From the NCBI RefSeq assembly GCF_004010195.1, contig NC_057713.1, positions 22,560,703 to 22,624,702 on the forward strand: a stretch of DNA of 64,000 nt, read 5' to 3'. How positions within the stretch are numbered: position 1 is the stretch's first letter; the number at the start of each line of letters is the position of its first letter. This DNA is from Chiloscyllium plagiosum (lineage: Eukaryota). The notes under the pieces are model-generated. The model was not told where the DNA came from. It worked only from the letters and a program-made list of their open reading frames with translations, and ran no database searches. Below, in pieces: positions 16,177-63,890 of this stretch. The translations under genes were made by a program, and so were the position numbers.

Positions 16177-17526
16177 ATAGAGTCATAGAGATGTACAGAC
16201 CCTTTGGTCCAACCCATCCATGCCGACTAGATATCCCAAACCAATCTAGTCCCACCTGCCAGCACCCGGCCCATATCCCTCCAAATCCTTCCTATTCATA
16301 TACCCATCCAAATGCTTCTTAAATGTTGCAATTGTACCAGTCTCCACCACTTCCTCTGGCAGCTCATTTCATACACGTATCACCCTCTGTGTGAAAAAGT
16401 TACCTCTTAGGTCTCTTTTATATCTTTCCCCTCTCACCCTAAACCTATGCCCTCTAGTTCTGGATTCCCCGACCCCAGGGAAAAGACTTTGTCTTTTATC
16501 CTATCCATGCCCCTCATAATTTTGTAAACCTCTATAAGGTCACTCCTCAGCTTCCGACACTCCAGGGAAAATAGTTCCAGCCAGTTCAGCCTCTCCCTAT
16601 AGCTCAAATCCTCCAACCCTGGCAACATCCTTGTAAATCTTTTCTGAACCCGTTCAAGTTTCACAACATCTTTCCGATAGGAAGGAGACTAGAATTGCAC
16701 AGAATATTCCAACAGTGGCCTAACCAATGTCCTGTACAACTGCAACATGACCTCCAACTCCTGTACTCAATATTCAGTCCAACAAAGGAAAGCATACCAA
16801 ACGCCTTCTTCACTATTCTGTCTACCTGCAACTCCACTTTCAAGGAGCTATGAACCTGCACTCCAAAGTCTCTTTGTTCAGCAACACTCCCTAGGATCTT
16901 ACCATTAAGTGTATAAGTCCTGCTAAGATTTGCTTTCTCAAAATGCAGCACCTCGCATTTATCTGAATTAAATTCCATCTGCCATTTCTTAGCCCATTGA
17001 TCCATCTGATCACGATCCCGTTGTAATCTCAGGTAACCTTCTTCACTGTCCACCATACCTCCAATTTTGGTGTCATCTGCAAACTTATTAACTGTACCTC
17101 TTATGCTCGCATCCAAATCATTTATACAAATGACAAAAATTAGAGGGCCCAGCACTGATCCTTGTGACACTCCACTGGTCTCAGGCCTCCAGTCTGAAAA
17201 ACAACCCTCCACCACCACCCTCTGTCTTCTACCTTTGAGCCAGTTCTGTATCCAAATGGCTAGTTTCCCCTGTACTCCGTGAGATCTAAACTTGCAAACC
17301 AGTCTCCTTGCAAACCTTGTCGAATGCCTCACTGAAGTCCATATAGATCACGTCTACTGCTCTGACCTCATTGATCCTCTTTGTTACTTCTTCACAAAAC
17401 TCAATTAAGTTTGTGAGACATGATTTCCCATGCACAAAGCCATGTTGACCATCCCTAATCTGTCCTTGCCTTTTCAAATATATGTACATCCTGTCCCTCA
17501 GGATTCCCTTCAACAATTTGCCCACT
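16177..17526 (-). mobile_element. Young 5'-truncated CR1 (HER1-like) LINE, frameshifted RT
   Basis: ORFs 17286-17525, 16661-17332 and 16434-16664(-) give QHGF..GKSCLTNLIEF, DVIYMDFS.AFDKV, GVSQGSVLGP, KFADDTKIGG, LERVQKRFTRM; tail GACTCTAT on the minus strand. Confidence 0.97.
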
Positions 17527-21812: not shown

Positions 21813-23397
21813 CACCATCTGGCCTCTTACTTATTAGTCAACCATTTTCCTATCTTTCCAAGTTCAATGTAATAGAGGGAGAGCTCTATAGAGGTAAGGG
21901 TGGAATACTTTTCAGCAAGCAATATCTAACATGTGCTATCCCATGATATTACCTATGGGAGGGTGATTAAGAATCTGATGAATGGCTGTGATGTTTAATT
22001 GTAAATTTGTTCTGCCCCTTTACTCCTAATAGGTGCATCCAATAAATTGTAGCTGCTGAAACCTACCAACAATCAGTCAGCATAGAGTTGTTGCTGATTT
22101 TAAATGTCACTGTCTCAGTTCTAACTGTTTTTTGTTCTGATAGTTTTTGTTGGAACAGTATGTGATATCTGAAGTATGATGAATGTCAACTGGATGTAAA
22201 ATTTTACCATTCTGCTGATCAGTGCATTTTGGGATTGCATGCAGGCAGTATTAGAATATGCATTGAGTATGGACGAGACAATGTTCTGGAGCAGCGTGTC
22301 GTTGGAGAAGAGCAAACAGATGTGTTCAGGATCCATTTTAGAGATATGAATTCTAACTTTATTTTTGTCTTGCATTGTAAATTGCTGTATCCCACATTTA
22401 TTATGTAAAACTTGCATACTGTAATTACTGTGACAATGCTGGCATTGCAGCACCTCCACTGAAGGGGCAGGGAGTGGGTTGTAGAAAGTGCAGTTAATGC
22501 CTAACCAGTTTTTATATAACCAGTTTTCATTATAAATGTTAACATCAAAATTATAATGGAAACTAGAATGACAGGAAATGTGCACAGATGTTAGATGCCT
22601 CCTATTTTAGGAATGGAAATGGCTTGCAGAGCAATGATCAGACAATTATACAGTCACCTCGACTGTTAGTTGATTGTCACTTATATTTTTAAACAAACAA
22701 CATTTAATAATAACAGCATGAGCAGATACCCAATTTGAAACTATCTTGGCTTCTTGGAAACCACCCACAAGAAGATGGAGTTTTCTGCCTGACTTTCACT
22801 CTTTGCCCAACACGACACAATTCATCTCTTTAATGTCCCTTATTGTTTGCGAGTGGTTGATGAGGATCTCAGCAAGTTAGAGAAACTGCAAAGTGTAGAG
22901 AATTTTTTCCTTCACTCTACTGGGTTATGTTTGTTTTATTTTTATATCACTTCCATGGAGCACATTGAAGACAACACGATAAATAATTTGGTATCAATCT
23001 GCGCAGGGCAAGAAGGCCCCAGCTTTGAATCTTACTCAGTGTTGAATAAGTTGACATTTGGTGGCTGGCCACCCTACTCCAGAGAAGGAGAGGAAAATAT
23101 CAGCCTGGCTTCACCTGTTTGATTTAACCCTTTGCCAAAAAATATAATTGCAAAAACATTGGAAGCAGGCGGATCAAGTATTGTGTCAGTGCATTTTGTT
23201 GATACTGAATGGTATATGCGCAAGATCTGAACAAATCAACAGAAAGCTGTCGCATAAAACTAATTATATAAAAAAAGTTATTTTTATAGATGGATATCTT
23301 TCATAAGAGAAACCTCTGCGAGCGTGTTTAAGGGAAAAAAATAAATCTGCAAACTGAAACAGAAACCTATCTTGGGAGGTCAACCAATTGCAGAATC

Positions 23398-23523
23398 TGA
23401 AACAAAACCAGAAATTGCTGGAGAAACTCAACAGGTCTGGCAGCATCTGTGGAGAGGGAAACAGAGTTAATGCTTTGAGCCTGCTTCAGTTCTGACGTTT
23501 CTCCAGCAACTTCTGTTCTTTGT
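23398..23523. mobile_element. Penelope-like pLTR remnant with inverted ends
   Basis: cagaaattgctggagaaac ... gtttctccagcaacttctg; ggtctggcagcatctgtggagag shared with 42900, 46830 and 51260. Confidence 0.7.
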
Positions 23524-25464: not shown

Positions 25465-25683
25465 AAAGTGAAAAATCACACACCAGGTTATAGTCCAACA
25501 GGTTTAATTGGAAGCACACTAGCTTTTGGAGCGACGCTCCTTCATCAGGTGACACTATCACTTGATGAAGGAGCGTCGCTCCGAAAGCTACTGTGCTTCC
25601 AATTAAACTTGTTGGACTATAACCTGGTGTTGTGATTTTTAACTTTGTACACCCCAGTCCAACACCGGCATCTCCAAATCATG
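25465..25683 (+). mobile_element. Penelope-like fold-back element (family 2) with 12-bp TSD
   Basis: Inverted arms about 25465-25552 and 25558-25646 plus a unique 3' tail; TSD ACCATTAAAGTG at 25459-25470 and 25684-25695. Confidence 0.85.
25558..25595 (+). ncRNA. Minimal hammerhead ribozyme motif, inactivated (mirror copy on the minus strand at about 25515-25552)
   Basis: cac-tTGATGA-a-GGAGC-gtc-GCTCC-GAAA-GC-TA has C3 to U; the minus copy cac-CTGATGA-a-GGAGC-gtc-GCTCC-aAAA-GCTA-gtg has G12 to A. Confidence 0.65.
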
Positions 25684-33060: not shown

Positions 33061-33163
33061 GTACATTCGGTCAGAACGGTCGGTAATTTTAATAAACTTC
33101 TGCCTGTCAATCATTTCATCAAATGCTCTTATCCTGATAGGACAAACTCAGACAAGAAATAAA
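33061..33163 (+). CDS. ADGRB1: ADGRB1 coding exon: ICL1-TM2, (R)[34 protein letters not shown]
   Basis: ttgcag acceptor, AAA|gtaagt donor; 103 nt, phase 2 to 0. Peptide matches recalled BAI1 (ends QTQTRNK). Confidence 0.97.
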
Positions 33164-33339
33164 GTAAGTGTTTTTTTTACTATATAGACTACATGGTATT
33201 TAGCAGATCTATATTTAGATGTTTTAACCTTTATTTGTTTTTTCTAAAGAGATTCAAGACAAGGTGACAGCAGTTTGGAAACTGAAATCTAAATGCATAA
33301 TTGTCATTATGTCCTCTTAATTATGACTAAGAGCCTTGG

Positions 33340-33685
33340 GTAATTAGGTTAGAGGTTCAATTCTCATTGAAGAGACTTCAACACAATCTGGACTAACATT
33401 TCAATGGCGTACTAAGCACTGTGTTGTTAGTATGATATGTTTTGGATGAGTTGCTAAACCGAGGCTTTGTCTTCCTACTCAGGAGATACTATTTGAAGGA
33501 GAGCAGGTGTTTTGCAATATTTATCCATCAAACAACAGCTAAAGATGTTGTCATTTCTTCAGTTACTGTTAAGAAAGTTGGCTTCCACATTTCCTGTATT
33601 CTAGTAGTGAGCACACTGGTTGTGAAGCATTTTTATATTTTCCCTGGGTCATGAAAGCCCTTATAAAAATGCAAGTCCTTTTTTT
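33340..33685 (+). mobile_element. SacSINE1-like DeuSINE
   Basis: ggttcaattctc B-box-like, tttggatgag..taaaccgagg, actatttgaaggagagcagg, caatatttatcc, aaatgcaagtc tail. Confidence 0.65.
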
Positions 33686-34243
33686 AGCTTGCCTTTGAAA
33701 AAAGGGTTAGCATTCTGAAAACCCCTTTGTATTCAAGGGCCCGATAATTCAAGGATAGCTGAAGACAAGAGACATGTTGTTGAGCTTTTTTCATTTTGCA
33801 TTGTTCAGGACAGATGCAAGATGCAGTTCTGGTCCCGTTCCTTCCAGAAGGATTTTGTCAAACTTGAAAGGGTTCAGAAAAGATTTACAAGGATGTTGCC
33901 AGGGTTGGAGGATTTGAGCTATAGAGAGATGCTGAATAGCCTGGGCCTGTTTTCCATGGAGCATCGGAGGCTGAGGGATGATCTTATACAGGTTTATAAA
34001 ATTATGAAGGGGCATAGATAGGATAAATAGACAAAGTCTTTTCCCTGGGTTGGGTGAGTCCAGAACTAGGGGACATAGGTTTAGAGTGAGAGGGCAAAGA
34101 TATAAAAGGAACATAAGGGGCAACTTTTTCACGCGGAGAATTATACGTGTATGGAATGAGTAAGTGATGGAGGCGAGTACAATTGCAGCATTTAAAAGGC
34201 ATCTGGATGGGTATTTGAATAGGGAGAGTTTAGAGGGATATGG

Positions 34244-34579
34244 GATGGAAATGTGTTGCTGGAAAAGCGCAGCAGGTCAGGCAGCATCTAGGGAACAGGA
34301 GAATCGACGTTTCGGGCATTAGCCCTTCTTCAGGAATGAGGACAGTTTGTCCAGCAGGCTAAGATAAAAGATAGGGAGGAGGGACTTGGGGGAGGGGCGT
34401 CAGTCCCTCCTCCCTATCTTTTATCTTAGCCTGCTGGACAAACTGTCCTCATTCCTGAAGAAGGGCTAGTGCCCGAAACGTCGATTCTCCTGTTCCCTAG
34501 ATGCTGCCTGACCTGCTGCGCTTTTCCAGCAACACATTTCCATCTCTGATCTCCAGCATCTGCAGACCTCACTTTCTCC
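34244..34579 (+). mobile_element. Penelope-like fold-back element (family 1): 143-bp inverted arms, 15-bp TSD
   Basis: Arms 34244-34386 and 34402-34544 are complementary at 142/143 positions; TSD TTAGAG(G/A)GATATGGG at 34230-34244 and 34580-34594. Confidence 0.9.
34451..34486 (+). ncRNA. Minimal type I hammerhead ribozyme motif with intact core (mirror copy 34302-34337, minus strand)
   Basis: attc-CTGAAGA-a-GGGC-tagt-GCCC-GAAA-C-GTC-gatt: core CUGANGA and GAAA, 4-bp stem II, palindromic ACGU stem III, GUC site ending at 34482. Stem I is weak (U-U mismatch). Confidence 0.7.
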
Positions 34580-35782
34580 TTAGAGAGATATGGGCCAAAT
34601 GCTGGCAAATGGGACTAGATTAGGTTAGGATATCTGGTCAGCGTGATGGGTTGAACCGAAGGCTCTGTTTCCATGCTGTACTTCTTTTTGCGACTCTATG
34701 ACTCGCAAAACTCCAAATTTCAAAGGGAACAACAATTTATACTCCATTAAAAAAATAGAAATGCTTAATGGTTGAAAAGTCAACTCTGATTTGTCCAGGC
34801 ATTGCCATGGCAAAGACTGCTCCCCAAGCCTCGCCCCAATGATTTTGTTTAGTACCCTGTCAGTTTTTTATATGATCTGTATGGCAAGACCTTGACTTAT
34901 CAGTGCACCACTATTTTGTCATCCAGTATAAATTGTTGACTCTTTTGAAATTTGGTACTCTTGCATTTTTCCTGATGAATCAAGTCAAAAACTTCAACAG
35001 TGCTGCTTTTTCTTTCATTAAACCTGAAAATGCTTTTTTGGCCCTCAAGCATTTTACATGCACTGAATTACTTCTGAATATTGCAATAACTGTTGACATT
35101 GACATTTGTTGAACACATTTAACTTTGTAGCAAGGCTTAACAGCAGTTGGATAAATCAACATCGGCTATCTTTATGTAGCTTGTGGGAAAAGCTCTTTTC
35201 TTCGGTTAGTGCCACTGAGTCTGTCAATTGTGCCTGAATTAGCTAAACATGGTTATGTTTGATGTCTGTCTCAAAGGACAGTGTATTTGACACCATGGCA
35301 ACGATGTATCAGCCATTTTAAGTGCTCTGCTCTTGAATTACCTTTCTCTTGGTCCAGGTTAGCTGATCCACAGTAATGTCATTGGCTATCTTTATTATTT
35401 AATTTAAACTTGATGTTACAAATATGCATCAGATGTATGCTGTAAACGTTCAATACTGGCTAAATCCTGAATAGATAGTATCTCTACATTGATGTATTAG
35501 AAATAGAAATGTGGTATATATGTCCTTTATAGAATTGCCCATGACAAAATAGCGGTGAGCAGTATGATAAAATCCCAAACATACTAAATCAAAGAATAAT
35601 GAGAGCATCATCTTTTTGCTTCAATGATCAGTAACTGCAGAATTTTTCTTGCCTATGAAAATGGCACTTGTAAGATTTTTGGGTTAACATATTATACTCC
35701 TGAAACATAAATAAATTCTGATTATCATAACTTAAGTGAATTACAAAAAGTAACATCATTAAAAAAACCACTCCAATAGACC

Positions 35783-36010
35783 GTAAGAAATGGAAACAGG
35801 ACGAGCATGTTTGACCCCTTGAGCTTGCTCCACCATTCACAAGGATCATGGCTGACCTGATACTCCTCAATTCCACATTTCTGCCCTTTGCTTATAACCC
35901 TTGATTCACTTCCTGATCAAGACTATATTTACCTCAGCCTTAAATATACACAAGAAAGTTCCCCCACAGCTCTCTGTACCAGGCCATTCCAAAGACTCAT
36001 AATGTTCTCT
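35783..36010 (-). mobile_element. CR1 3' end fragment
   Basis: cccttgagcttgctccaccattcacaaggatcatggctga...cccttgattc...ccccacagctctctg. Confidence 0.75.
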
Positions 36011-36194
36011 TTCCACAGCGGCCTAATCTTAAATTGACCACTGCACGTTTTTGATGTAATGTGTAGGTAAAGAGTCCAGTTGTCACCTGATGTTTCAAAA
36101 GATCACCTGTTTCCATTCAGATGAGCATCATTAGCACTGTTTGGACTGCACCCAAAAATAGCTCAGGTTTCCAGCTCTTTAATTCCATGTATTC

Positions 36195-36521
36195 GTCGAA
36201 TCCAGCAAAAAGAGGCCAGTCAACCCATTTTGTTGTCACTGACCTTCTGAAGAGCATTCCAACCAGACCTACAACCTCCACTCTTTCCTTGCATTTCCCA
36301 TGGCTAATCCACCTAGCCTGCACATCCCTAGACACTTTAGGGTAATTTAGTATGGGCAATCCACTTTATCTGTACATCTTTGGTCTGTGGAAAGAAATCA
36401 GGGCACCCAGCGGAAACCTGCAGACACATGGAGAACATGCAAACTCAACGCAGTCACCTGAGGCTAGTACTGAACCTGCGTACTTGGCACTTTGAGGCAC
36501 CACTGCTAATCGCTGTGCCAC
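36195..36521 (-). mobile_element. HE1-type SINE, older, first nucleotides missing
   Basis: Reverse complement gtggcacagcgattagcagtggtgcctc...ggttcagtac...gagtttgcatgttctcc...tttagggatgtgcaggctaggtggattagccatggg-like core. Confidence 0.85.
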
Positions 36522-36529
36522 ACGAAGGG

Positions 36530-36602
36530 CATTGGATCAGGGACTTAAACCCTGACCCCTCAGATTAAAAGTCTGATGCTCTACCGACTGAGCCACCCCG
36601 GC
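36530..36602 (-). pseudogene. tRNA-Lys(UUU) pseudogene
   Basis: Reverse complement GCCGGGGTGGCTCAGTCGGTAGAGCATCAGACTTTTAATCTGAGGGGTCAGGGTTTAAGTCCCTGATCCAATG. D arm and TTT anticodon arm match vertebrate tRNA-Lys(UUU); the acceptor stem has 3 mismatches and the T-loop reads TTT instead of TTC. Confidence 0.88.
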
Positions 36603-36779
36603 TCCCAAGTCTTACCAGATGATTCCTTCATTCTCTGGTCAATGTTTATTATTTGATGTGATTTATATTTTCACCATGCTATTCTCCTTTACACTTCCTT
36701 CTTGGACTATGAGATTCATTAAAAGGCTAATATTTATAATTCAGCCCAGGTTGCCCATGAGCTGCCTATAACAATGATT

Positions 36780-37140
36780 TTTCTTTTATGGAATGGGAGC
36801 ATGGTTGGCAAGGTCAGCATTTGTACCTTACTAGGCCATGTAAGAGGACAGCTCCGAATAAATCAAATCTTGTGGATCAGGAGCCATGTGTCAGCCAGGT
36901 CGCGGAATGATGAAGGGACATCTTCCTGTTAGTGAGTTAGATGAGATTTTATGATATCCCAGTTGTTTCCTGGTCCATTTTAACAATGTTAGCATCTTAT
37001 CTCTAATTAATTGCCTTCTTTTCTTTGAAAAGTTAGTTAATTAAATTCTCCCAGCTGCAATTTTAAATTTTGCCTGTGGACCATCGCCAGATATCTGGAT
37101 TACTAGTCCAGTAATGTTTCTCTATGCTCCTGTCTCCCTC
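36780..37140 (-). mobile_element. tRNA-derived SINE family B, decayed
   Basis: ggcaaggtcagcattt tail; tctggattactagtccagtaat head; homologous to 56590-56930. Confidence 0.6.
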
Positions 37141-37817
37141 CTTAATGTCAGTTGTTCTATCTTTTATGTTTTAAATAGTCTCATGCTGATTTCTTTGATG
37201 CCTCTGAAGTCACCCTCCTCCTGCGAGGTGGTACTTTGATTAAAAATCTAAGATGATATTCTCTGAAGACCAGCCCTGGAGGTCGTTTTGTCGCCTTATT
37301 GAGTGCTTGCATTTGACAAGCTTTTATGAGTGGAATTGAAATTGCAATCCTCAAGAGTAACATTGAAATGGAAGTTGACTTGTCTGCAATATAGGGAGTT
37401 CCAGTCAGGCTTGGATGAGCTGACTCATAAGCAGGCCAATAGGGTAATGCTCAGATGACTTATTCATCATACATACCCAAACTGCACTCAAGAAATAACA
37501 CTGTACACCAAGGGATGTGCAGCAAGGAATGGAAATGTGTAATTTTATCTCCTTCTTCTGCTCTCAGGAATTAAGGATTGGAGCTTCAAAAGGTCAATTG
37601 CATACCCTTCATTTTCAAATATCAACTCACTGCTGTGCCTTTCCAGTGAATTGTCTTCAAACTTGTTTAAAGAATCCCATTCAACTTAATAGCTGACTTC
37701 ACTGTTGAAGATTCCAATTTCCCATACCACATTTCAATTTGCTTTCATTTAAAATGCTTTCATGGGATCTGAGCATCATTGACAAGGTCAGCATTTGTTC
37801 CCCATTCCCATTAGCTT

Positions 37818-38138
37818 GGGCGGCACGGTGGCACAGTGGTTAGCACTGCTGCCTCACAGTGCCAGAGACCCGGGTCAATTCCCGCCTCGGGCAACTGTCT
37901 GTGTGGAGTTTGCACATTCTCCCCTTGTCAGTGTGGGTTTGCTCCGGTTTTCTCCCACAGTCCAAAAATGTGCAGGTTAGGTGAATTGGCCATGCTAAAT
38001 TGACCGTAGTGTTAGGTGAAGGGAGTAAATGTAGGGGAATGGGTCTGGGTGGGTTGCTCTTCGGAGGGTCGGTGTGGACTTGTTGGGCTGAAGGGCCTGT
38101 TTCCACACTGTAAGGAATCTAATCGAATCTAATCTAAT
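37818..38138 (+). mobile_element. HE1-type SINE, young full-length copy
   Basis: gggcggcacggtggcacagtggttagcactgctgcctcacag head with CpGs retained, V-domain core, (AATCT)n tail. Confidence 0.95.
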
Positions 38139-38713
38139 AAAGTTGGTGGTGAACTATTTCCAAATCTGTTGCCAGTCCTTGTGAGGGAAGGGGCATTCCA
38201 CAATTCTGTCTCAATGAGAGCACAAGCGTGACAGTGTTTCCAACTCACAACATTTGAGGCTCAGAAGGGAATAAGCAGTTGATGGTATTCCCATGCATCT
38301 GCTATCCCTGTCCTTGTAGATGGCAGGGATGGTCAATTTTGTATGTGCTAGCTAAGGAGGCTTGGTGAATTGCTGCAGTTTTCACACACATACTCTTGCT
38401 GCTATGTGCCACTGGAGGAAGGAGTGAATGTTGAATGTAGTAGATGGGATGCCAATCAAGAGGATTGCTTTGATTGGCGTAATGTCAAGCTTTTTGAAGT
38501 GCACTCATCTACCAGGTGGAGAATATTCAAAAATGATTCTGATTTGGGCTTTTGGAGTCTGGCTTGTGGAGTCTGCAAGTGAGTACTTTACTGCAGAGTT
38601 ATCAGCATCAGACCTGCCTTTTTTGCCACAGTATTTATATGATTGGTCCAGTTCAGTTTCAGGTCATTGGCAGCCCTCAAGACATTCGGGGATTCAACCA
38701 TGGTATTGGCATT

Positions 38714-39266
38714 GAAACATAGGAAATAGATGCCATAGTAGGCCATTTGGTCCCTTTGGCCTGCTCTGCCATTCAGTAGAATCATGGACTACTCATCAAC
38801 CAACTCAGTACGCTAAGCAGTGTTCTCCCCACACCTTCTCATCCCTCAACAGGCTCAACGCTCTCTGGGTGGAGAAATTTCTTCTAATTTGTCTATAAAA
38901 TGGCCTACTGCATATCCATAGACTATGATGCCTGGTTCTAGAATGCCCAGTCATCAGACTGCCCTTCCTGGGTTTACACTGTCTAGTCCTGTTAGAATTT
39001 TATAGGTTTTTATGACGTACCTCCCCTCATTCTTCTAAACTCCAGTGAATGTAGTCTAACCAATCCAGTCTCTCTTCGAACATCTGTTCTGCCATCCCAG
39101 CAATTAATCGGGTAAATCTTTGTTGCACTCCCGTCATAGCCAGAACATCTTTCCTCAACTGAGACTGAATCTCTGCACAAAATTCCAAGTGTGGTCTCAC
39201 AAAGAGCCCTGTACCATTGCAGCAAGACACCCCTGCTCCTACTCAAATCCTCTTGCTATGAAGATA
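38714..39266 (-). mobile_element. CR1 3' fragment
   Basis: ORF 39027-39230(-) VRPHLEFC..LRKDVLAM.GVQQRFTRLI.GM. Confidence 0.88.
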
Positions 39267-40578
39267 ATTTATCGGACAGGATCATTGTTTGGTACTTGTG
39301 TAGCATGAATGTTAAAGCCACTTATCAACCTCTTACGTTGTAGAGGTTTTTACCATACTTACCACTGTCATTATCTGCAAACTTTCTCACGTCTGATGGA
39401 GAGGATATTATTAATAAAGCATTTGAAGATGTTTGGATGCAGTGAAGCCTTGGTTTGAGATGATTAATTTCCAACAACCACAAACGTCTGTGCTCAATAT
39501 GACCCCAGCCATTATGTTGTTTTCCCAGATTCCTACTTATTTCAGATCTGGTGGGTCTTCTTGGTACCTCACATGATCAACTGCTAGCTTGGTGTCAAAG
39601 ACCGCCATTCTCACTTCAGTTCTTTTGTCCATCTTTGGATCAAGAATATGATGAGTTTAGGAGCTGACTGGCCCTGCAGGAGAATGCAGAGCTTTGGTGA
39701 GCTGTTTGTTGCTGTGTAAATGCCACTTGGTAGCAATGTTTTTGACACCTTCCATCACTCCGTTGATGCCAGAAAAAAGACTGACCTGGCACAGGAATTA
39801 GGAGCTGAAGGAGGCCATTCAGCCCATCAAGCCTGCTCCATGATTAGGTTAGATCACAGCTGATTAGAATGTGGCCTTAATTCTCTTTTTCTGTCTGCTC
39901 CATAGTTCTTGACACCCTTGACTGAAAAAACCTGCTCAATTTTGCCTTGGATTTGCTCAGTGACACTGACTTTGTTGCTCTCTGTAGTTGAGAATTCTGT
40001 AAACTAATGACCCTCTTTATCCCAGACTTAGTTGGTATTCATTTTTTGTTTAACTGTGTCCTCTTGATCTAGTCTTTCATAAAATGAAAGTCCTCTCAGC
40101 ATCCACCCTGTCAAAAATGTTATATTTTTTTCTAAGATCACCTCTCATTCTTCTAAACACCAAAGAATGTAATCTTCATCTGCTCAACATTTCCTCATAA
40201 AGGTATCTCTTTATCCCGGGAGGCAGGCAAGTGAAGCTCTTCCAAATTGCTCCAATTTGCAGTTTTATCCTTTCTGAAATAAGGGGATCAAAACTAAATA
40301 CTGTTCTCAAGGTGTGGTCTGTCTATTGCCCTGATACTGCTGTAGCACGGCTTCTTTACTTTGATACTCTAGCCCCTTGCAATAAATAACAGTATTAGAT
40401 TTTCTTTCCCCTTCGTTTACATATCTGTATAAATAATATGTACTGGACACCCAGATCCCTTTGTAACTAGAGTTTTGCAGTCTCTATTTGTACCAAAAAT
40501 ACACTACATTTATATCCTTCCTAAATAATCCTAACTTTTAGCAATTAATTGAACTGAATCTCTTTCCAGAGTCATAAT

Positions 40579-41168
40579 TGTGACAATCACATGGCCTTAG
40601 GGGATGCATTTTGTCCTTTTTATTTTGAAGGAATGTTTTGAGCCATAGCCACAGAGCTGTCTCCTCCAAACCAATAAAGTAAACAGCTTATGAGACCTTT
40701 AAAGTTGGAACAGCATGACTGGGTGGATTCAGACTCCCATAGAACCAGGGTTTTAGTTTAGCTTTCAGTTGCTGGGGTTTTGAAGCTGCATGTGGAAGCT
40801 ATTATTCCTCTCTTTGTTACAGCAAAAAAATGGAGTTGCTTCTGCTGCCAGGATAGCATGTGAAGCAATCTATTTTATTAAATTTGTATTTATGGGATGA
40901 TACTATATTGTGACAGTTGCTGTTCAGTAGTTAAATAATCTATTATTCTGGTAAGTTTTCCAGTAGTTAAAGGTAGGCCAATTCTTCTGTCTTTTGTTTG
41001 CATTTTAATGATAGGGTAAGAATAGAGTGTGTTTTGCTGAAAGCCGAGTAACCAATTGAATTATACTGACAACGCAGCATCTTACCCTTGCCTTTAAATA
41101 AAAAAAAAAGTTATGGTCTAGGCTACCTACTTAATACATTTGAAGGAGGTTTGGTGTGGTCCATAACA
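40579..41168. mobile_element. Solo LTR (TG...CA) with 4-bp TSD TAAT
   Basis: taat|TGTGACA...CCATAACA|taat; homologous to 12525-13140. Confidence 0.85.
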
Positions 41169-41274
41169 TAATGTCCACTTAACAATTTAATTTCCTACCT
41201 ATCTTTGTATCACCATAAAGCCTATCCACCATACCTTTTGCCTTTTTATCCAAGTCATTGATATAGATTGAGGT

Positions 41275-41456
41275 AGGAGAAAGTGAGGTCTGCAGGTTCT
41301 GGAGAGTCCGAGTCAAAAAATGTGATGCTGGAAAAGCACAGCAGGTCAGGCAGCATCCGAGGAGCAGGAGAATCAGCATTTCGGGCATAAGCTCTTCATC
41401 AGGAATTCTTAATGAAGGGCTTACGCCTGAAACATCAGCTCTCCTACTCCTTGGAT
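41275..41456 (-). mobile_element. Penelope-like fold-back element (family 1), older
   Basis: aggagaaagtgagg tail; palindrome centred on gaattc 41403-41408; minus strand CTGATGA-agagc-ttat-gccc-GAAA with a decayed cleavage site. Confidence 0.85.
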
Positions 41457-42859
41457 TTGTTAGTATAGTCCCAGGCATTGATTTCTGTGACACACCACGA
41501 CTAACAGTTTCCCAGCTGAAAATGATCCTTTATCCGTACTCTTTGCTTCTGTTAACTACCCAATCCTCTATCCAGGCTTCTACTTTCTATTTTCTAATTC
41601 CACCTTCTATTCCAAGAACTCTTTAATTTTGTGATGTAACTTTTGATGTAGTACCTGTTCAAATGTCATCTGTAAAGCTATAAGGATACTACACGTACAG
41701 GTTGCCTTTAATTCATTTTGCCTGTTATTTTCTTAAAGAACACTAAAGTCTTCTACAATGAAGACAAAAACAAAATACATTGTTAATGCTACTGCTATCT
41801 TTTGGTGTACAATTATTAACTGTCCACTTTGTCTAAGGGAATAATATTACATGAGTTACTATTTCCCTTTTCAAAAAACTTACCTCAAAAAACTCTGCCT
41901 AATAATCTTGACAGTATTGTATGATTTTTTTTCTTTCAATTTTGCACTATCCTAATTTTCCTTATCCACATCTTTCATTCTCCTTTGTTGAAAGTTATGA
42001 AACATATCCTTGAATATTTTAAAAATTATTTTCCCAGTTCACTTTAGCCATCTCAGTTCTCATACCCTTATAATTGTCCTTATTTAAGTGTAAGATATGA
42101 GTTCAAGACCCACACTTCTCACACTCAAACTGAAAGTGAGAATATGTTAAATAAATATGTTATCATCTTATGGTCACTATTGCCTAGAGGCTCCCTTACT
42201 GTGACGTCATTATTTAATCCTATCTCTTTGCACACTAGCAAGTCTAAAATCATCAACTCTTTGGTTCTAACTAAAATGTACCTCTCCAGTAAATTGACCC
42301 AACTGCACTCTAGGAACGCATCTTCCAACATATTGTGGAATTATTGACCAAATTGGATTTGTTCTGCTTTGAGTGTACAAGATAGACATAGACAATTTTC
42401 ATCTTGTCAGAAAGATACCAGTGTTGAATGTCGGCAGTCATCTTTCAACAAGACCAAATATTCAAATTCCAAATATGGGGAAGATGATGAGTATTAGTCA
42501 AACACTTTTAGCTGTCTCACACTTGGTTTCCAGAAGATATCCTGTAAATAAAAGAAAAAGAAAGAACCTGGTATTTTAAGCCTCTTTCATGATGTCAGAA
42601 TGCCCACTGCTTTAGGGCCAGCAAAGAGGAACAGCCACTGTTTAATGTAGGAAAGCACGACAAGTAATCTGTGCTTAAAAACATCCCAAAAATGCCAGTG
42701 AGATAAGTAACCAGTTATAGCTATTTTCTTTGGCAGAGGGAATAACTGTTAGAATCATAAGTTGGTCTCCTACCGTGCGGTAACCAGTCTGCCTGTTAAA
42801 TCTGTACCAGCTCTTTGCAAGCATGACTTAGTGAATGCAACTCCCACTTCTTCATGAAA

Positions 42860-43430
42860 TAGAAAAGAAAATCTGCCGATGCTTTAAATCTGAAGCAGAA
42901 ATAGCTAGAGAAACCCAGCAGATGTGCTGGCATCTGTGGAGAGAAAGCAGAATTAATGTTTTGAGCTTAGTGCCCATTCACTGAACCTGAAACATTGAAC
43001 TCTGCTTTCTCTGTACAAATGCTGCCGGAGCTTTGGGTTTCTCTGGCTATTTCTGGCTTTTGTTCTGAAAACAGCAAATGCTGGAGATCACAGTGGGTCA
43101 GACAGCATCCATGGAGACAGAGCAAGCTAAAGTTTTGAGTCTAGATGATTCTTCATTGGAGATGACGTGAAGCGTAAAGAGGGAGCATTTATACAATAGT
43201 GGGGAGCAATGCAGAGGGTGGAATGCTGGGAGAGAAAGAATGTTGATAGTTTGGGTTAAATGATTTGCACAGCAATGGTCTAACTGCCTGACTTGAAAGA
43301 ACAGACAGTCCCACAGAGATGAGGGGAGGGGAGGGAGATTGTAACAAGTGAAGCTAAAAGAAATGAAGGAATGGGAGTTGTTTCACAGTTTGAAGCTGTT
43401 GAATTCAGTCTTAAGTCCAGAAGGTTATAG
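42860..43430 (-). mobile_element. Cluster of Penelope-like pLTR remnants (family 3) with ORF 3' end
   Basis: Inverted pair at about 42895-43055; ttgaattcagtcttaagtccagaagg (PSGLKTEFN on the minus strand) parallels 51590-51620. Confidence 0.7.
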
Positions 43431-44905
43431 AGTGGTTTTTGCTCCCAATTCCTCATCTCTTTTCTCACAGACTTAAAGATATTGTTTCTCCAGGTGCTTA
43501 TTGAATTCTCTATTGAAAGCCGAGTTTGAGCCTTCCTACACCATGCTTTTCTTTATACAGTTCAGATCTGGAAAACCCTACCAGAGGTTGTGGTAGAGCC
43601 AGATACCAACTGGAGCTTTCACAGTGGAATCTGATTAGTATTTGAAGAGAAAAATTAACGGGACCATATGATAAGGGTAGGCAAGTGGGACTAGCTGTGC
43701 TGTGTTGGACAGCTGACCTCCCAATGTGCTGTATTTTGACCATTGGCAAGAACTGAATTATTAGGTTGTGGTTGTTAAAATATGGTCAACCTGGTGAATA
43801 AAGTTGATTATAATCATTATGTTGACAATTCCAAACTATATTAATGGAGATAATTCTTACATTAAGAGGATAAGAGTGTATTGTATGATTTCCACTTGGG
43901 AAAAAAATCCGTGATTTCCCCAAAGAGATGACTTGGGTCACTGCTGCACTTCTTTGAAATTGATGATAAAGTGTGGAATTTGGACACAGGCATAATAAGG
44001 GTAAAGCCAGCAAGATGTGTCTCCTTAGTTCTCATTTTACAGAATACCTGAGCCATTCTATGCTGCTCCATTGTAAAACTCTGATCCAGTTGCTTGCTTT
44101 TGCATAAAGTGCCCAGTTTCCAATTCCTAATGTACTGAGTGGAGCTAATTGGCTGCCAACTTCACCATGTGACAACTGTATTTTTTTATGAATGATTTAA
44201 GTTGGCCATGGAACAAAGCACAACTGGCCAATTTTTCTGCAATTCAGTGTGCCTCATTGAACTGTAATATTTCTTGACAATTGATATGTTTGTCAGGATT
44301 CAGCTGCGTAAGCACACCGTAACCAAGTTCTAATGGTTTTTTAATTTAGCACTGGTAAAATTGCTGCTGATGAATGGAAGTCTGGTTTCAGGCACTGACT
44401 GCATGCAACAAGACCCACTTCTGCATTGCTTGCCCTATCGGTCTTTTACTTTATCCATTCACTCACAACTTATCTCCATATTAAATCTCTTACTAGTACC
44501 TGTGTTTTGGATCTGTCATTACTCTGTATTTTTACCTAATCTTCCACAGAAAGAAGTGCCATGAACATTATAATTTTAAAGGAAAGTATTGACACACACA
44601 CAAAATAAAGTCATCTGAATGAAGGATGATGCATGCGTTAATGAAATTGATTTTCTGAATAATTGTAAACAAAAGCAATTTGTTTTTTTTTCTGTCGATA
44701 AACTCTCTTGCTCATTGTATTTGGCATCTTAACCTGTTGTTTGCTAAGGATGGACTGGATAGGCTCTTCTTTCAGTAGTAAATGGAGGGGGTAGGAGCAT
44801 AAAAATGGGTATAAAGAATCTGTGAATTCTAGCAAATACTGTGAAGTTAGTCAGGCTTAAAGCAGAAATATGCAGAGGCAAACTTTGAACAGGCACAGAA
44901 GCAGA

Positions 44906-44989
44906 TGAGTAGTTATTTGAAATTATCACTGATATGAGTTATTTAATATTGTTCAGTGAGTAGTTATTTAAAATTATCACTGATATGAG
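44906..44989. repeat. 33-bp direct repeat, two copies, 51-bp period
   Basis: tgagtagttattt(g/a)aaattatcactgatatgag at 44906-44938 and 44957-44989. Confidence 0.85.
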
Positions 44990-46789
44990 GAAGCACGATG
45001 GATTTGTTTTATTTTTTCCATTCACTTCCAAAAGAATGAATGAGCAATTATTAATATCAATGTTCATGTCTTTATATCAAAGACATAAATATCCAGTTCA
45101 GATTAATGCTACATCCTAAGGTTATGCTCTCATATATTTAAATAATGAATTTATGTAGCTAACTCAAATGTAAAATGAATTAACATTGCTGCGCTTGAGG
45201 GAAAATTTGAGCTAGCACGTTAAATTTGGATAATTCCTTCCTGGCTGCAATCCTCTTGCTCTCGTGATTTCATAGTTTCTGCCTCTTAGCAACATGAAGG
45301 AGCAACTTTATTGTCATTCAGTTTGTTCAGCAACCTGTGGAAAATTCTTTCGTTCTGATTCTTCTCAGCCTGATGATATAGTAGAAATTGGAAATTTATC
45401 ACGTGAAAAAAAACTTCAGTCTAAGCTCCCACAGCCCTCTGCAAGAGCAGCGCATTAAGGTCGGTCAATCCATACTATAAGTAAATTGATTGTTATGATA
45501 TTATTTAAAACTAAATGACTGCTTGCCTTAATTAAGAACAATATTTCTCTGAGCTAATGTTAATGAATTAGTGTATTAGTGAAAAAGGAAAATGTCAAGC
45601 TGGTCAAGAGCAATTCAATCTTGTGGTAATTCCCGTTCAGATGAGGATATTTTCTCATCAAGGATATTTTGAATGGCAGGTTTGAAATTCCTGCATTTAA
45701 ATGATCCACAGAGCAGATTTAATTTGTAACTGTGAAACTGTTCAAAGAAAATTGCTGCAATTGATTCTGAGAGTTGCATAGTTACTGCTATTTGAGCACC
45801 CGAAGATATAGCACCTGCTAGCTATAGTGATTGCTTTACATAGAGCTCCATTGAAATGAATTAACTCCGATTATCACACAGCTGCAAAATCACATTGACT
45901 CAAATGCATCTAGTCCTGGTGCATTGGCAGATTCTCCACCAGTGGAATTAGGTGAATTTCTTTTTAATTAAGTGACCAATTCACTGCCTTAGTTCATATG
46001 CTGGCATAGAATGTGACATTTACTCTGCTGTACTGACAAAAGTGGGAAATGTTGAAATATTATATGATTCAAAAAGAAATTGCAAGTTCTCAGTGTAGGA
46101 AACACTTTCCTTCTCACAAGATGGAAGCTGCTACAGAATATTTTTGCTTCTGTTCTCAGAGTTCTGACAATATTGAATTTTCCACATTTCTCTTCTCTCA
46201 TAATAAAGTTTGCTGTTTTACATAGTATTGATGTACACTCAATTAAAAATCAACCTTATAATGCTGTAAGAATTGAATAGTAATCATTGCTCTGGGCATG
46301 AAGATTTTTCATAAGGAACAGGACAAAAAAAGACCGTATCATGGAATTTAGTGTGTAGTGAACTGATTCTGTGTGAGGATTCAGCAAGAAACACTTTCGG
46401 GGATTTAAACTGAAATTATGGAATGATGAGTGATCTGTATAAGGGCTTTGCTAGAAGTTGAGCAGTTAGTAAATCTTCCTTCCTTTTGTAGGGACTAAGC
46501 AAAGAGCATATCCCTCTGAATGTAACATTGTACAGGGATTGTATGTGCCATCTGTTCATGAGTTCCTTTGGAAATAAGCCATACATCAGCTCTTTCTATA
46601 TGGGGAGCTGACTGGGGCCGAAAGAAAGCTCACATCATTCTGCATGAGGTCTCAGAGAGGGAGTGCGCAATCATATGACATTCTTGTCGGAACATTTTAA
46701 TTGGAATCGAGCAACTTTCTGGAAGTGGGCTTCAGTGAAGGCTAATTGATCCTTTGTAGAAGGATGAGCTGATCATTTTAAAGAAGTAA

Positions 46790-47360
46790 AAACAACAGCG
46801 AATATGACAAATCTGAAACAAAAACGGAAAGTGCTGGAGAGACTGAGCAGGTCTAGCAGCATCTGTAAAAAGTAATGCAGAGTTCACATGTCAAGTCCAT
46901 TGACCCTTCATCAGAAACAAAAACAGGAATTACTGGAAAAGTTCATCAGCACTGGTAGCATCTGTGGAAGAAGGCAGAATTAATGCTTCGGGTTGAGTGA
47001 CCCTTCCTCCTTACATGAGTTCTGTGAGACAAGAGCAAGCAGAAACAAGGGGTTTGACCAGTTCTGCCAGGACTGTTCTGGTGAAGGGTCACAGAGTCAT
47101 AGAGATGTTCAGCACCGAAACAGATCATTCGTTCCAACTCGTCCATGCCGACCAGATATCCCAACCCAATCTAGTCCCACCTGCCAGCACCTGGCCCATA
47201 TCCCTCCAAACCCTTCCTATTCATTTACCCATCCAGATGCCTTTTAAATGTTGAAATCATGCTAGCCTCCATGGTCGCTGGAGTCAAAACGTTAACTCTG
47301 TTTTTCTTTGTATAGATGCTGCTAGACCTGCAGCATTTCTCCAGAAATTTCTGATTTTGA
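46790..47360. mobile_element. Nested Penelope-like pLTR remnants (family 3)
   Basis: Tandem pLTR heads at about 46815 and 46915; inverted arm gttctggtgaagggtc...aaaacgttaactctg...gctgctagacctg split by a CR1 tail. Confidence 0.75.
47092..47271 (-). mobile_element. Young CR1 extreme 3' end
   Basis: cagagtcatagagatg...tccatgccgaccagatatccc...cccatccagatgcc, near-identical to 16177-16345. Confidence 0.9.
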
Positions 47361-47614
47361 TCCTTTTAAGGACATGACTTCACTGGAGAGTGTGCAGTGA
47401 ATGGGGGAGAGACTTCACTTGGGTCTTGTGATGCTGCATAAATGAATATTAAGAGCTAAAAATGTGATCTGTTCTGAGTTCAGAGCTGGTTAATTAGTCT
47501 TGGAAGACCAAATCAAGGCCAGGTTTGTTGGGTTTACCACTAATAGGACAGTCATGTTATCAGATTAATCAAAGATTTCATTTTAAATGACCTTTTGCTT
47601 TCTTACTTTTCCAG

Positions 47615-50766: not shown

Positions 50767-51256
50767 AAAATATGTATAGATTAAGCTGTTTGCATTCTGT
50801 GCTGATACCTGCATTTAAATCAAATGCCCTTTTGTAAAATGCTACAGTTTCCAAGTGGGATTATAAATTAGGTAATGGGGATTTTGGATCTTTTAGATTT
50901 TTAAGAAAAACCTCTATAAAATTTCATATCTTTGCAATTACATAATCATTTCTGCTTTTTTTTCAAGGTTGTGTAACTCCTGCTTTGTTGTCATGTACTG
51001 TATCTTTTTTTAAATGCAGCATTCCAGATTTATGTATTGGAGACAAGCAGAACAAAAACAAAACTGGTTGTCTGTTGTGACGAGGAGAGGACTGATTTTG
51101 TGCCACATTTTATTGACTTTTGAAGGATTTCTTACTGCAGGCTGCTGATGTTTAAATGTTAAATGTATTAGAATTAGGTTTTATTGTCATGTTTGTTCAA
51201 TTACAAAAGTACAGGAGGACAGTGAAATGGCTGACACAAATACGGGCTCATTGCCT

Positions 51257-51891
51257 CAGAAATATGAATTGCTGGAAAAGCACAGTAGTTCTGGTAGCAT
51301 TTGTAGAGAGAAAGCAGAGTTCACATTTCAGGTCCAATGATCCTTCTTCAGAATTCATTTTAGCGAGGAAAAGGCTGGTGTATGTGTTGAAAATAGGTTT
51401 GGGGCAGGGGGCCAGGAGTAAATGATATGTAAAGATGGGGCCCAGAGCGAGAGAACAACAGCAGACGAAGGAATGGGTATAGGTCAGCGTGGGAGAATCG
51501 GTAGCTGCTAATACGACCATGTAATGACAAAGCCTGGTGTGTAGGGAGTCATGGTAAGAACATGGGAGAAGTTGCTCAGGCCCTAAAATTATTGAACTCA
51601 ATATTGAGTCCTGAAGACTGCAGAGTCCTCAAGCGGAAAATGAGGTGCTGCTCTTCCAGCTTGCACTGAGCTTTGCTGGAGCCCTGCAGCAAGCCTGAGA
51701 TAGAGATATTATCTGGAGAACATGGAGGCATGTTGTAGTGGCAGACAACAGGAAGTTCAAGGTCATTTTTGCAGACAGAATGCAGGTGTTCTACAAAGCG
51801 GTTGCCCAGTCTCCACACATGCTGCCAGACCTGCTCAGTTTTTACAGCTATTTCTGGTTTTGTTTCTGATTTTCAGCAACTTTAGTTTTTG
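51257..51891 (-). mobile_element. Penelope-like element fragment: GIY-YIG endonuclease C-terminus, pLTR and inverted pLTR piece
   Basis: ORF 51576-51818(-) RLGNRFVEH...KLEEQHLIFRLRTLQSSGLNIEF is the PLE GIY-YIG C-terminus; hammerhead-like CTGAAGA..GAAA at 51317-51356(-). Confidence 0.88.
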
Positions 51892-59760: not shown

Positions 59761-61133
59761 TTTTCAATACACACAAGACTGGTTACTATAAGGGTCAACT
59801 TGCCTTAAAGAAGAGGTCCCAATGATGAATCACCATATTAAAAACATGCATGCGATATGATAAAGAATCTAATAAGGATATTTGAAGGTGTGAAAAGAAA
59901 ATTACACCTTTTCAGAATGTTCCACATTCCCCAGCAGATTTTCCATTTTGGGCAAACTTGCAAACCTGGGTTGTGCTGCGTAAGGGATTCTGTGCTTTTC
60001 CAGCACCACCCTTTTTGACTCTAACTCTCCAACATCTGCAGCCCCCTCTTTCTGCTAAAACTCTGCACAGCCAGACAAATATGGTGTGCTGGAGAAAATG
60101 TGATTTTCACTTCATTTAAAATGGGGAACCCGACTTCAGCAGGGATCTTTAGAGTTTTTGCACATTAGCCTTTCCTGATCGGAACAAAGACTAGAGGATA
60201 ATAGTGTGGGGGTCTGTAATGCAGAAGAAAATTGGATTTCTTCCCAGCAAAATATAGTTGGAAGTTCTTCCACATAGGAAATGCAATAGCATCCACTCTC
60301 AAATGAAAATTGAACCCTGAACGTGAATGAAAGTTTGATATAAATCTAAAGTTAAATACCGCGAATAGTTTGTTAGGGATCAAAAATTGACAAATATTGC
60401 CGCTACTAAAATTTCATATACAATCCTGATAATACGGTTCTACTCAACCTGTAGGGAGGCCAACAAGTCTGTCAACATTAGAAAACAGGACAGATAGGTT
60501 AGTGTTTTACTGATAACACAATATCATTTTGCCTAAGAAAAGCAATACCTATGCGGTTAGGCTTAACCCTGTCCACTCAACAAGGACAACATTTTGAGTG
60601 GCACAGTGCTAAATGTGAGCAATGGAAACATTGCTGTTCCCTCGACAGAACATGTGAGACACAAGTGCACAGGGCAAGCAATTGTGTATCTCCTTAATTA
60701 ATCTAATTACAGGTTTGTGAACTGAACAGTGCAATTTCTGAGAAGAATGTATGGTTTACAGTGGACAACTTTAATGTAAGTTATGACATGGAGGGAAATT
60801 GAGACTGAATTAAGTTTGTGTTTGTGAGAGAGAGAGAGATGAGACAAAAAGCGTTAAACTCAGTGAATTCAAATCATTCCTAACAATTGAAAAAGCCTTA
60901 AAGAATGAAACTCCATATTTGAATTTTAATGTTAAGCATCAGAGTGGTTAATAGGGGCTAATTAATATTCAAAACAATTTTAGAAGGTCATTTAGACTTG
61001 ACTTTCTGAAGTGAATCTTCTTTGGTGTTGTGCAAATATAGAAACTTCACGCTACTGAATTAATTTGGACTGTGAGATTAAGATGTTACAAAAGTAATGG
61101 AGAAACAGCGCAGAACAGATTGTAACTCTTGAT

Positions 61134-63890
61134 TTCATAGGAAAATAGGAACAGGAGTAGGCAATTCAGCCCCTCAAGCATGCTCATCCATTCAATAGCA
61201 TCATAGCTGACCTGTGGCCTAACTCAATATGCCTGCTTTTCACCTAAATTTCTTGATCTCCTTGCTTAATAACTGCTTAATGTCTCTAATCTCAGATTTA
61301 AATTTAACAACTGAACTAACATTGACTGTCGTTTGAGGAAGAGAGTTCTAAACCTGTACTGTTCTTTACATGTAGAATTGGTTTCTAACCATCTTTCCTG
61401 AATGGCCTGGCCCTAATTTTTAGACTTTGTTTCCTGATTCTAGAACTCTTCAAACAGTGGAAATACCTTGTCTACCCTGTCTTTCTATATTCATTTCCTC
61501 AAGTCCTTGATTAGATCATCCTTAAACTACTAAATTCTAGATATTAAAGGACTAACTTCCTGATCTCTTCTCATAAATTAACCCCTCAAGCCCAGCTGTC
61601 AGTCTTGTAATCCTATGTTGAGCTCCCTCCATGGCCGAAACATCCTTTCAGAGGTGTGGTGCCCTGACCTTCTCCCAGTACCCAAGATATAAAGGCCAGC
61701 ATTCCGTTAGCCACCTTCAATATTTTCTGCACCTGTTAGTGGCATTTTAGGATCTATACACCTGAATTCCAAAGATTGTTGGACATCTGCTGTATTTAAC
61801 TTTGTGTCTTCTAAAAAATACCCCAATCTATTCTATGTTGGCCCGAGAAAGATAACCTCATACTTGCATATTTTAAAATCCATCTCCCCAGCTTTACCCA
61901 TTCACCTAGTCTATCATTATCCTGTTGTAATTTTATACTGTCACCAGCAAATGCTCCTCAATATTGGGTTGTCAGCAAATTTAGAGATTTGACTTTTTAT
62001 GACCGTATTCGACATTATCACAGTCATTAATGAATATTTTAAAATTTTGAGGTCTCAGGACAGATCCCTGCAGATCAGGACAAATCATGTGCTGCCAAAT
62101 TGAGTATTTAACAATTATTCTTACTCTGTTTTCAGCCACTCCACCAATTTCCTATCCGTGTTAGTAATTTGTCCTGAATTCTATGGCTTCCACCTTAGCT
62201 AACAGCCTTCTGGAAATCCAGATAAACCACACCCTATGTCTCACGTCTGTCCACCACCTTCATCACCTCTTCAAAACACTCTCTGTTCGGGTTTTCAGGC
62301 ATAACCTACCCTCCAAGTCCATGCTGACTCGCCCTGACTCACTGAAGATTTTCAAGGTGATCAATTGCCTTATCCTTGATTCTAGATTCTAGCAATTTCC
62401 TCACTACAGACGTCAGACTAACTGGTCTGTAATTCCCTTGTTTCCCTCTGTCATCCTACTTAAAGAGCAGAGTGACGTGAGCAACTTTCTGCTTCAGGGA
62501 ACTCTGAAAGATTATGATTAAGATGTTAGTAGTGTGTTCTCCTACCTCCTTTAACACCCGTGGACAGAAACCATCAGGTTCTGTAGATTTATTATTCTTT
62601 CAGTTCCATTAATTTCCGCATTTTATTTAGACCCTATCCCTGACTGTCTGTTCTTTTGTTTGGGACTTCTGACAAGCTAACCTCCTTTCCTGCTGCAACT
62701 ACTGAAGCCAAATAATTGTTCAGCATTTCAGTCATTTCCCCATGGCCACTGACAGCATCTCCACTCTCGGCCTTCAATGGACCAGTAGTCCTCTTAACCA
62801 TCCACTTTCCCTTTATATAACTATAAAATTTCTTCTTACTGTCTTTTATGTCCTTTGCAAGTTTCCTTTCATGGTCCTTTTTAGCTTTCTTACGAGCTGC
62901 TTTGTGGTTTTTTGTTGGACTTTGTATTTGTCCCATATGTAAGATCTATCCTGTTCTTTGCATTTTTGTAATGCCTTTCTTTTAATTTTATGCTGTCACT
63001 AACCTCCTTACATGTCCATGGCTTTGTTTGTTTGTTTGAGGTATCTTTGTTTGAGGTGGAGCTTTTTCTTCTCACAGGTACAAACTGCTTCTGAATAGCA
63101 TTAAGCATTCCTTTGAACATTCTCCACTGTCTCTTAGTTGTTTTACTTATTAGCAGAGCTTCACAGTTTACTGTAGACAGTCTCTGACTCATCCTACAAA
63201 GGTTTGTCTTACACAAATTTAAAATTCTAGTAATTGATCTTTTCTTGTCTCTTACAAAAGCTACATGAAACATGATCTTGTTATGATCACTATTTGACAA
63301 TTCCTCATAAACATGAATTAAATCAGGCCCATTGTTCATTACTTGATCCCATATTGCTTGTTGCCTTTTCTCATCCAAGACACATTGTTCTCATAAACTA
63401 TCCCAGACACAGTCTAGAAATTCACAACCTTTCAGACTGATGCTTGTCATCTCTCCCAGTCTATGTTAAGATTAAAGTTTCCAATTACTACTCAGCCTTT
63501 GTTACATCGATGCCTAATTTCTGCATTTATACAATCTTGCACTTCTGAGCTACTGCTAGGTGGCCTATATATGAGCTGAAAAATGTGTTGCTGGAAAAGC
63601 GCAGCAGGTCAGGCAGCATCCAAGGAGCAGGGGAATCGACTTTTTGGGCATAAGCCCTTCTTCAGGCTTATGCCCGAAATGTCGTCCCCTGCTCCTTGAA
63701 TGCTGCCTGTCCTGCTGCGCTTTTCCAGCAACACATTTTTCAGCTCTGATCTCCAGCATCTGCAGTCCTCACATTTTCCCTTTTGGCCTATATATGAGAC
63801 CTATTGTGATTTTAGTTCCTTTATAGTTTCTCACTTCCACCCATAAGATCTCCGCTAGTGCTTTCCCCTCATTACATTCTCACCAGAGAA
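61134..63890 (-). mobile_element. Long decayed CR1 from 3' UTR to APE domain
   Basis: 3' UTR at 61134-61260; ORFs 62634-62936 and 62890-63378(-) K.FYSYIKGK..GPLK, NSDHN, W..FK. Confidence 0.9.
63573..63783 (+). mobile_element. Penelope-like fold-back element (family 1) with perfect 15-bp TSD
   Basis: Inverted arms about 63573-63656 and 63665-63746; TSD TGGCCTATATATGAG at 63561-63575 and 63784-63798. Confidence 0.9.

Follow-up and report, generated by a model that had tools for sequence, protein, structure and literature searches.

A hammerhead-bearing fold-back in an intron of the shark Chiloscyllium plagiosum is very probably a dead, inverted insertion of an abundant Penelope-like retrotransposon

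Introduction

Endonuclease-positive Penelope-like elements typically carry an inverted pLTR (PMC8557442, legend of Fig. 2). The account of Pen2a_Av from Adineta vaga describes an inverted pLTR in a unit with a target-site duplication (TSD) of 9 bp, where one arm bears a tail of 31 bp; in that account the head-to-head arrangement is the most frequent one and self-priming is proposed as its source (PMC3846280). Minimal hammerhead ribozymes have been described in the pLTRs of metazoan Penelope-like elements, with pairs on opposite strands 100–700 bp apart also noted, and in that study a lone minimal hammerhead gave no cleavage in vitro while dimers gave low levels (PMC4209133). The supplements of the same paper may list shark motifs. 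In the anole, as reported in PMC11167929, the element's protein nicks and extends both DNA strands, starting at two sites that bound the tail; the ribozyme cuts only in the presence of that protein, and insertion does not depend on its cut, the main substrate being uncut RNA. Animal non-LTR retrozymes are the subject of a recent preprint, which reports them from one chondrichthyan genome (bioRxiv 10.64898/2026.07.22.740005).

The locus analysed here lies in a 64-kb stretch of C. plagiosum DNA, hereafter the window. A preliminary description made from the sequence alone had reported a near-perfect fold-back with a hammerhead motif on each strand, inserted recently into a host gene, and had proposed that the antisense arm of the hairpin locks the ribozyme off. 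Our analysis leaves little doubt that the locus is a dead insertion of a very abundant Penelope-like retrotransposon, truncated and inverted at its 5' end, in which two head-to-head 3' repeats, one of them tailed, stand between TSDs and whose hammerhead is likely inactive in the pre-mRNA.

Results

Structure of the fold-back and its insertion site

The two arms of the fold-back (34244–34386 and 34402–34544) both have a length of 143 nt, with T34319/G34469 as their sole difference, exactly as first described, and the four CpGs of each arm are intact. Folding of the 451-nt region gave -352.3 kcal/mol (z = -38.2), a value matched by none of 100 shuffled sequences. The 15-nt "spacer" between the arms matches family sequence and is the upstream continuation of the left arm. 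The whole unit is a 337-bp hairpin in which no ORF sequence is left (Table 1). It splits an older LINE-like repeat, presumably of CR1 type, which is found uninterrupted elsewhere in the window, and the two flanks overlap when placed on the uninterrupted copies. The length of the TSD is given as 13–15 bp since one base at either end is common to the TSD and the element. No Pfam match was obtained with the frame of the flanking LINE-like repeat.

Table 1. Positions in the window of the insertion, its parts and its surroundings.
Feature	Position	Strand	Evidence or remark
Host exon, TM2 region of an adhesion GPCR	33061..33163	+	Pfam 7tm_2, E=6.2e-05; AG/GT ends; next exon
Older LINE-like repeat, piece upstream of the insertion	33822..34243	+	83% match to uninterrupted window copy 16270-16699
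Left TSD, 13-15 bp	34230..34244	+	15-nt match, one mismatch, to 34580-34594
Inverted, tail-less pLTR copy (the 143-nt arm and the next 15 nt upstream, the latter forming the hairpin loop)	34244..34401	-	
Minimal hammerhead core, family allele in loop II	34306..34333	-	
Direct 5'-truncated pLTR arm, host-gene sense	34402..34544	+	
Minimal type I hammerhead	34451..34486	+	Core 34455-34461; helix II 34463-34474; palindromic ACGU
Penelope "tail", 36 nt, right arm only	34545..34580	+	Tail described in PMC3846280, PMC8557442, PMC11167929
Right TSD	34580..34594	+	Derived allele A34586; G in 5/6 other exact-context LINE copies
Older LINE-like repeat, continuation after the insertion	34581..34702	+	79-82% matches to window copies 16195-16281 and 47088-47206

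The insertion lies in a 14.5-kb intron (33164–47614) of an adhesion-GPCR gene on the + strand, and the earlier placement about 1.1 kb past the TM2 exon was accurate, the element starting about 1.08 kb after the exon with the 7tm_2 match. We take the host gene to be BAI1/ADGRB1, in agreement with the preliminary description (BAI1), the name of the paralogue being an assumption; a PDB search with the host protein matched adhesion GPCRs and returned no ADGRB entry.

The family RT and GIY-YIG sequences described below, the inverted and truncated pLTR with a single tail, and the TSD together identify the insertion as a copy of an endonuclease-positive Penelope-like element.

The hammerhead motif

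The core CUGAAGA-A-GGGC-loop-GCCC-GAAA-CGUC is indeed present on each strand, starting at 34455 (+) and 34333 (-), and the predicted cut after C34482 had been placed correctly. All features of a minimal type I motif are found: the conserved core, G10.1-C11.1 in helix II, the extra base after position 9 and the palindromic 15.2-16.2 pair. Helix I of this family is weak (34451–34454 with 34483–34486 on the + strand; C-G, U-A, U-U, A-U); a sister subfamily has four full pairs.

Thirteen hand-picked motifs from six families of this genome, each parsed by script, were compared pair by pair. A MAFFT alignment shifted the F2 rows by one column and pairs were counted without an alignment. The first pair of helix I was CG in 6 motifs, AT in 4, TA in 2 and GG in 1; the second pair of helix II was GC in 8, TA in 4 and AT in 1; the 15.2-16.2 pair was CG in 8, GC in 3, CA in 1 and TG in 1. 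Judged by these compensatory changes in helices I, II and 15.2-16.2, the minimal hammerhead with its palindromic ACGU is genuine, as the preliminary description had supposed. A descriptor scan found no match in base-shuffled versions of the loci, which had been chosen because they bear the motif. No hammerhead family was present among the 16 Rfam matches with E up to 5, as expected for a motif that has no helix III.

Element family and copy number

The attribution to a Penelope pLTR was borne out by relatives at 95–99% identity, which run upstream into the C-terminus of a GIY-YIG endonuclease. One relative at 97.8% identity (L021) has the YIG half directly upstream of the pLTR; Pfam gave no match with this endonuclease fragment. 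A more distant locus (L080:3290-5536) encodes 749 aa in one open frame, which matches RVT_1 (E=1.2e-08) and, past a CX4CxxC linker, GIY-YIG; the pLTR that comes after this frame is 88.8% identical to the arm. Its GIY-YIG match (E=2.9e-04, 21.5 bits) falls just below the Pfam cut-off of 22.6. In the L080 translation a CX2-5CxxC linker precedes GIY-YIG and two cysteines stand between GIY and YIG. Linker and GIY-YIG cysteines are the criteria given for Neptune and Nematis in PMC8557442, and by these criteria the element would be of one of these two types.

A genome search with the RT fragment of another locus (L002) yielded 28,681 candidates, of which 150 were scored. No full-length pLTR-ORF-pLTR unit was found in 30 widened loci or in 30 loci at the 5' part of the ORF, most of them with N gaps; because of this, the youngest subfamily is linked to a whole ORF only across gaps or via the 89% relative. 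Side observations on the ORF include a Pro/Thr/Ser-rich repeat region N-terminal to RT whose length differs among copies (L242, L254, L229), and a 26-nt unit of the RT-endonuclease linker region that has grown into tandem arrays in some copies (L006, L030, L069). Two other loci 3.7 kb apart (L215, L216) carry the same insertion and flanks and are apparently a local duplication.

Exact counts in the genome gave 37,224 matches of a 30-mer from the ribozyme and 79,942 of a 31-mer downstream of it (control, 0 each). Head-to-head pairs of cores that turn at most 14 nt from the core were found at 7,607 loci (control, 0), so that at least 7,607 loci have the fold-back layout. When 30 consecutive ribozyme matches were inspected, 16 had an inverted partner and 14 had none.

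Ends of family copies

Copy ends were tallied at 109 exact matches of a 31-nt anchor (34501–34531) in the first 3 Mb of contig C1, eight gap-bounded copies being dropped for the 5' ends. Among the remaining 101 copies, 31 start within one base of A34451 (39 within 34446–34454), 38 are scattered over 34455–34500 and 24 start further upstream. A single copy starts at G34483, the predicted product of the ribozyme cut. The commonest start of the family, A34451, lies four bases before the hammerhead core. At the 3' side two classes were observed, 59 copies without and 50 with the tail.

A34451 lies within TCATTC, which we take to resemble an initiator, and there are 14,894 copies whose first bases are ATTC and whose preceding base is not C. 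By hand count, G precedes 56 of the first 100 listed copies that start at A34451, where about 27% is expected, and it precedes 10 of 18 independent solo loci. An extra 5' G has been described as the mark of a reverse-transcribed cap in L1 (PMC9341517, PMC11702581). When 30 loci were viewed in context, the preceding G was often attributable to the partner arm, or else to the target site, with microhomology following it; since the G so often matches one or the other, a cap origin is suggestive only.

The accumulation of 5' ends before the core and not at the cut site suggests that the copied RNA was uncut. Stalling of the reverse transcriptase at the folded ribozyme would produce the same pile-up. 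The copy in the window must have come from RNA that reads through A34451, because its turn lies 49 nt upstream. We propose, as a tentative reading that may well prove wrong, that most of the short copies end where the reverse transcriptase ran off a capped RNA 5' end equivalent to A34451, that the RNA copied is uncut, and that a fold-back arises by the copying of a single source onto the two nicked strands from starts 36 nt apart. If true, this would give in vivo support to the in vitro result from the anole and would account for the tail and inverted pLTR seen in Penelope elements.

Effect of the antisense arm on the ribozyme

The preliminary description had proposed a protective lock, in which the ribozyme could cut the host pre-mRNA and intronic fold-backs would be tolerated or favoured since the antisense arm disables it. 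The part of this proposal that concerns folding held in our predictions. In the host pre-mRNA the antisense arm would emerge ahead of the sense ribozyme and is predicted to pair with it into a closed stem: the pair probability of stem II was 0.98–0.99 in the sense arm alone and 0.0 with the antisense arm, and the stem was also lost in a nascent RNA ending at 34490. The covariation of the motif across families also speaks for the proposal.

The special or protective role was not supported: the layout is a standard one found at the thousands of loci counted above. Against it, too, the ACGU palindrome gives a monomer no helix III, and the published work quoted above found no cleavage by single motifs and little by dimers (PMC4209133), with dependence on the element's protein in the anole (PMC11167929). 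When two copies were co-folded, the hammerhead dimer was not the minimum-energy structure. The + strand of the window holds one intact sense core of the family, and unpaired copies are common in the genome, as the 14 of 30 consecutive matches show. The predicted lock is probably without consequence because a monomer cannot form helix III, the window has a single sense core and the minimal motifs in the literature show almost no activity unless protein is present. The host gene extends past the window, and sense copies in the rest of the gene could serve as a dimer partner. Since the motif would need such a partner and likely also the help of a protein, the lock is probably redundant, and we regard a protective role as improbable. 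Since no cut is to be expected from a lone minimal hammerhead, the hairpin would be a by-product of insertion and not a safeguard. A literature search returned nothing relevant on either a shark report or a lock model.

Origin of the fold-back

In order to place the locus among others of its kind, we collected 64 distinct fold-backs from loci gathered by our searches, a sample enriched by those searches. Fifty-three have one tailed and one tail-less arm, two have two tails, one has none and eight could not be classified. The two arms of a fold-back share subfamily alleles far more often than expected (43/46, 48/54, 51/53, 39/43 and 26/27 loci at the five sites, against 0.52–0.64). At two upstream sites the arms agree in 6 of 9 cases (0.50 expected) and at a tail site in 1 of 2. 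The shared alleles fit one source copied twice from two start points, with a TSD preserved as in the twin priming described in PMC11702581, although the 6/9 agreement upstream would not fit a strict single template. Conversion between the arms could be an alternative source of their likeness. In three further loci (L097, L108, L217) the arms have no sequence overlap, one arm being tail only, and resemble twin-primed inversions of L1 type.

In the mechanism that we favour, the RT-endonuclease would nick both strands about 14 bp apart, and a single source sequence would be copied twice, the first start lying at the end of the tail and the other about 36 nt upstream of it. The second copy may have been primed from the second nick or by snap-back of the cDNA. 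Both copies would have ended early, one at 34402 and the other 15 nt further, and would then have been joined head to head.

The number of fold-backs could also be accounted for by a MITE-like, non-autonomous element in which the hairpin is copied whole as a unit, and some turns do recur, the same 5-nt turn being present in 10 of the first 50 listed loci (hand count). Turn points nevertheless vary widely, the turn and junction of this locus occur in none of the 63 other fold-backs and in none of its 29 closest relatives, and the recurrent turns fall at the preferred 5' end of the family, which explains them without mobility of the unit. We consider this explanation very improbable. Least credible of all is an artefact of the gapped assembly, in which a repeat would have been collapsed or mirrored: the family has many N gaps in the assembly and no reads bridge the locus, but the arms differ at one site, only one arm has a tail, the TSD closes the unit exactly on the interrupted LINE and the one-tail rule holds in 53 of 56 classifiable fold-backs.

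Reads were sought directly. In four DNA runs searched for the junctions or an empty site, copies of the repeat swamped the result and no read bridged 33890–34650. One RNA run gave 141 reads on the region, 139 of them partial matches that run into other loci, with none on the exon and no pile-ups of read starts or ends; another matched no reads. As neither the DNA nor the RNA runs gave reads across the insertion's own junctions, the hairpin rests on the assembly.

Age of the insertion

Two differences are private to this copy, G34469 in the arm and A34586 in the TSD. At the first site 29 of 29 close relatives have A, and in four of these no other difference is found over 179 nt. We considered whether A34469G could be a fixed A-to-I edit and rejected this, as it is a single site and a common transition.

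The copy belongs to the youngest subfamily. Its arms differ at 1 of 143 sites; in the 64 fold-backs the mean divergence is 3.3% (186 of 5,576 sites), so the copy is young for its family. To that extent the insertion is recent, as first claimed; the claim does not extend to absolute age, given the two private differences. At 7e-10 mutations per site per generation, the rate reported for another shark (PMC10587355), it would take millions of generations to accumulate two changes in about 316 bases. Errors of reverse transcription or of assembly as the source of both changes would make the insertion far younger.

Other elements in the window

A second fold-back of the same family is present at 63573–63779, with arms of about 86 and 117 nt, one tail and a 15-bp TSD; it is older, with 4 arm differences in 74 shared sites. 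The host gene contains one more fold-back at 25480–25630, with 73-nt arms and a 5-nt loop, whose hammerhead belongs to another family (AGCU palindrome, 5-bp helix II). Two decayed solo copies of the family were also seen, one at 41275–41406 (-), in the same intron and antisense to the host, which begins at the preferred 5' end, and one at 59990–60056 (+). Older related repeats of another pLTR-like family lie at 23394–23478, 42881–42961, 46810–47359, 51256–51351 and 51804–51871, one of them with a decayed hammerhead at 51351 (-).

Intronic inverted repeats are subject to A-to-I editing. By analogy, a 143-bp intronic dsRNA would probably undergo such editing as well. Near-perfect dsRNA stems of 90–150 bp are probably present in many shark introns and may constitute a bulk ADAR substrate comparable to inverted Alus.

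Discussion

The locus alone matters little, being one of thousands of equivalent insertions. What gives the family its interest is tens of thousands of copies with ends that can be counted. The counts bear on how the inverted pLTR and tail form and on whether hammerheads cut in vivo, questions raised in PMC8557442 and PMC11167929, and this first count speaks against a template of cleaved RNA. The motif itself is likely inactive in the host pre-mRNA, as judged from folding and from the behaviour of published relatives.

The combination of inverted pLTR, tail and TSD is, by comparison with the published accounts, the textbook product of this class of elements and an already known layout. As far as Pen2a_Av of Adineta is described in PMC3846280, the shark unit has the same inverted pLTR, tail and TSD. 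It differs in having no ORF remnant in its 337 bp, in a TSD of 13–15 bp rather than 9–10, and in a family whose copies number in the tens of thousands, where Adineta has a few.

Set beside the minimal hammerheads of PMC4209133, the motif has, as in the consensus presented there, a CUGANGA core, one unpaired base before helix II, G10.1-C11.1, a palindromic 15.2-16.2 pair and no helix III. Unlike the Schistosoma motifs described there, whose helix II is 7–8 bp, the shark motif has a helix II of 4 bp and a U-U mismatch in helix I.

The two classes of 3' ends, about 36 nt apart, match the two RT start sites reported for the anole Poseidon element PAc in PMC11167929, and the 5' ends suggest that uncut RNA was also the main substrate in the shark. 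Unlike Penelope and Poseidon, as these are characterised in the published classification, the shark family has a CX4CxxC linker of the Neptune/Nematis type. As with the twin-primed 5' inversions of LINE-1 described in PMC11702581, the TSD is intact despite the inversion, which points to both nicks as priming sites; the two L1 pieces span adjacent parts of the RNA, whereas the shark pieces span the same part and yield a palindrome. Finally, like the non-LTR retrozymes outlined in the preprint (bioRxiv 10.64898/2026.07.22.740005), the shark unit is a non-coding, hammerhead-bearing derivative of a Penelope-like pLTR; those retrozymes form direct tandem arrays that can give dimers, whereas the shark locus is a single inverted pair, with one sense core on the + strand of the window.
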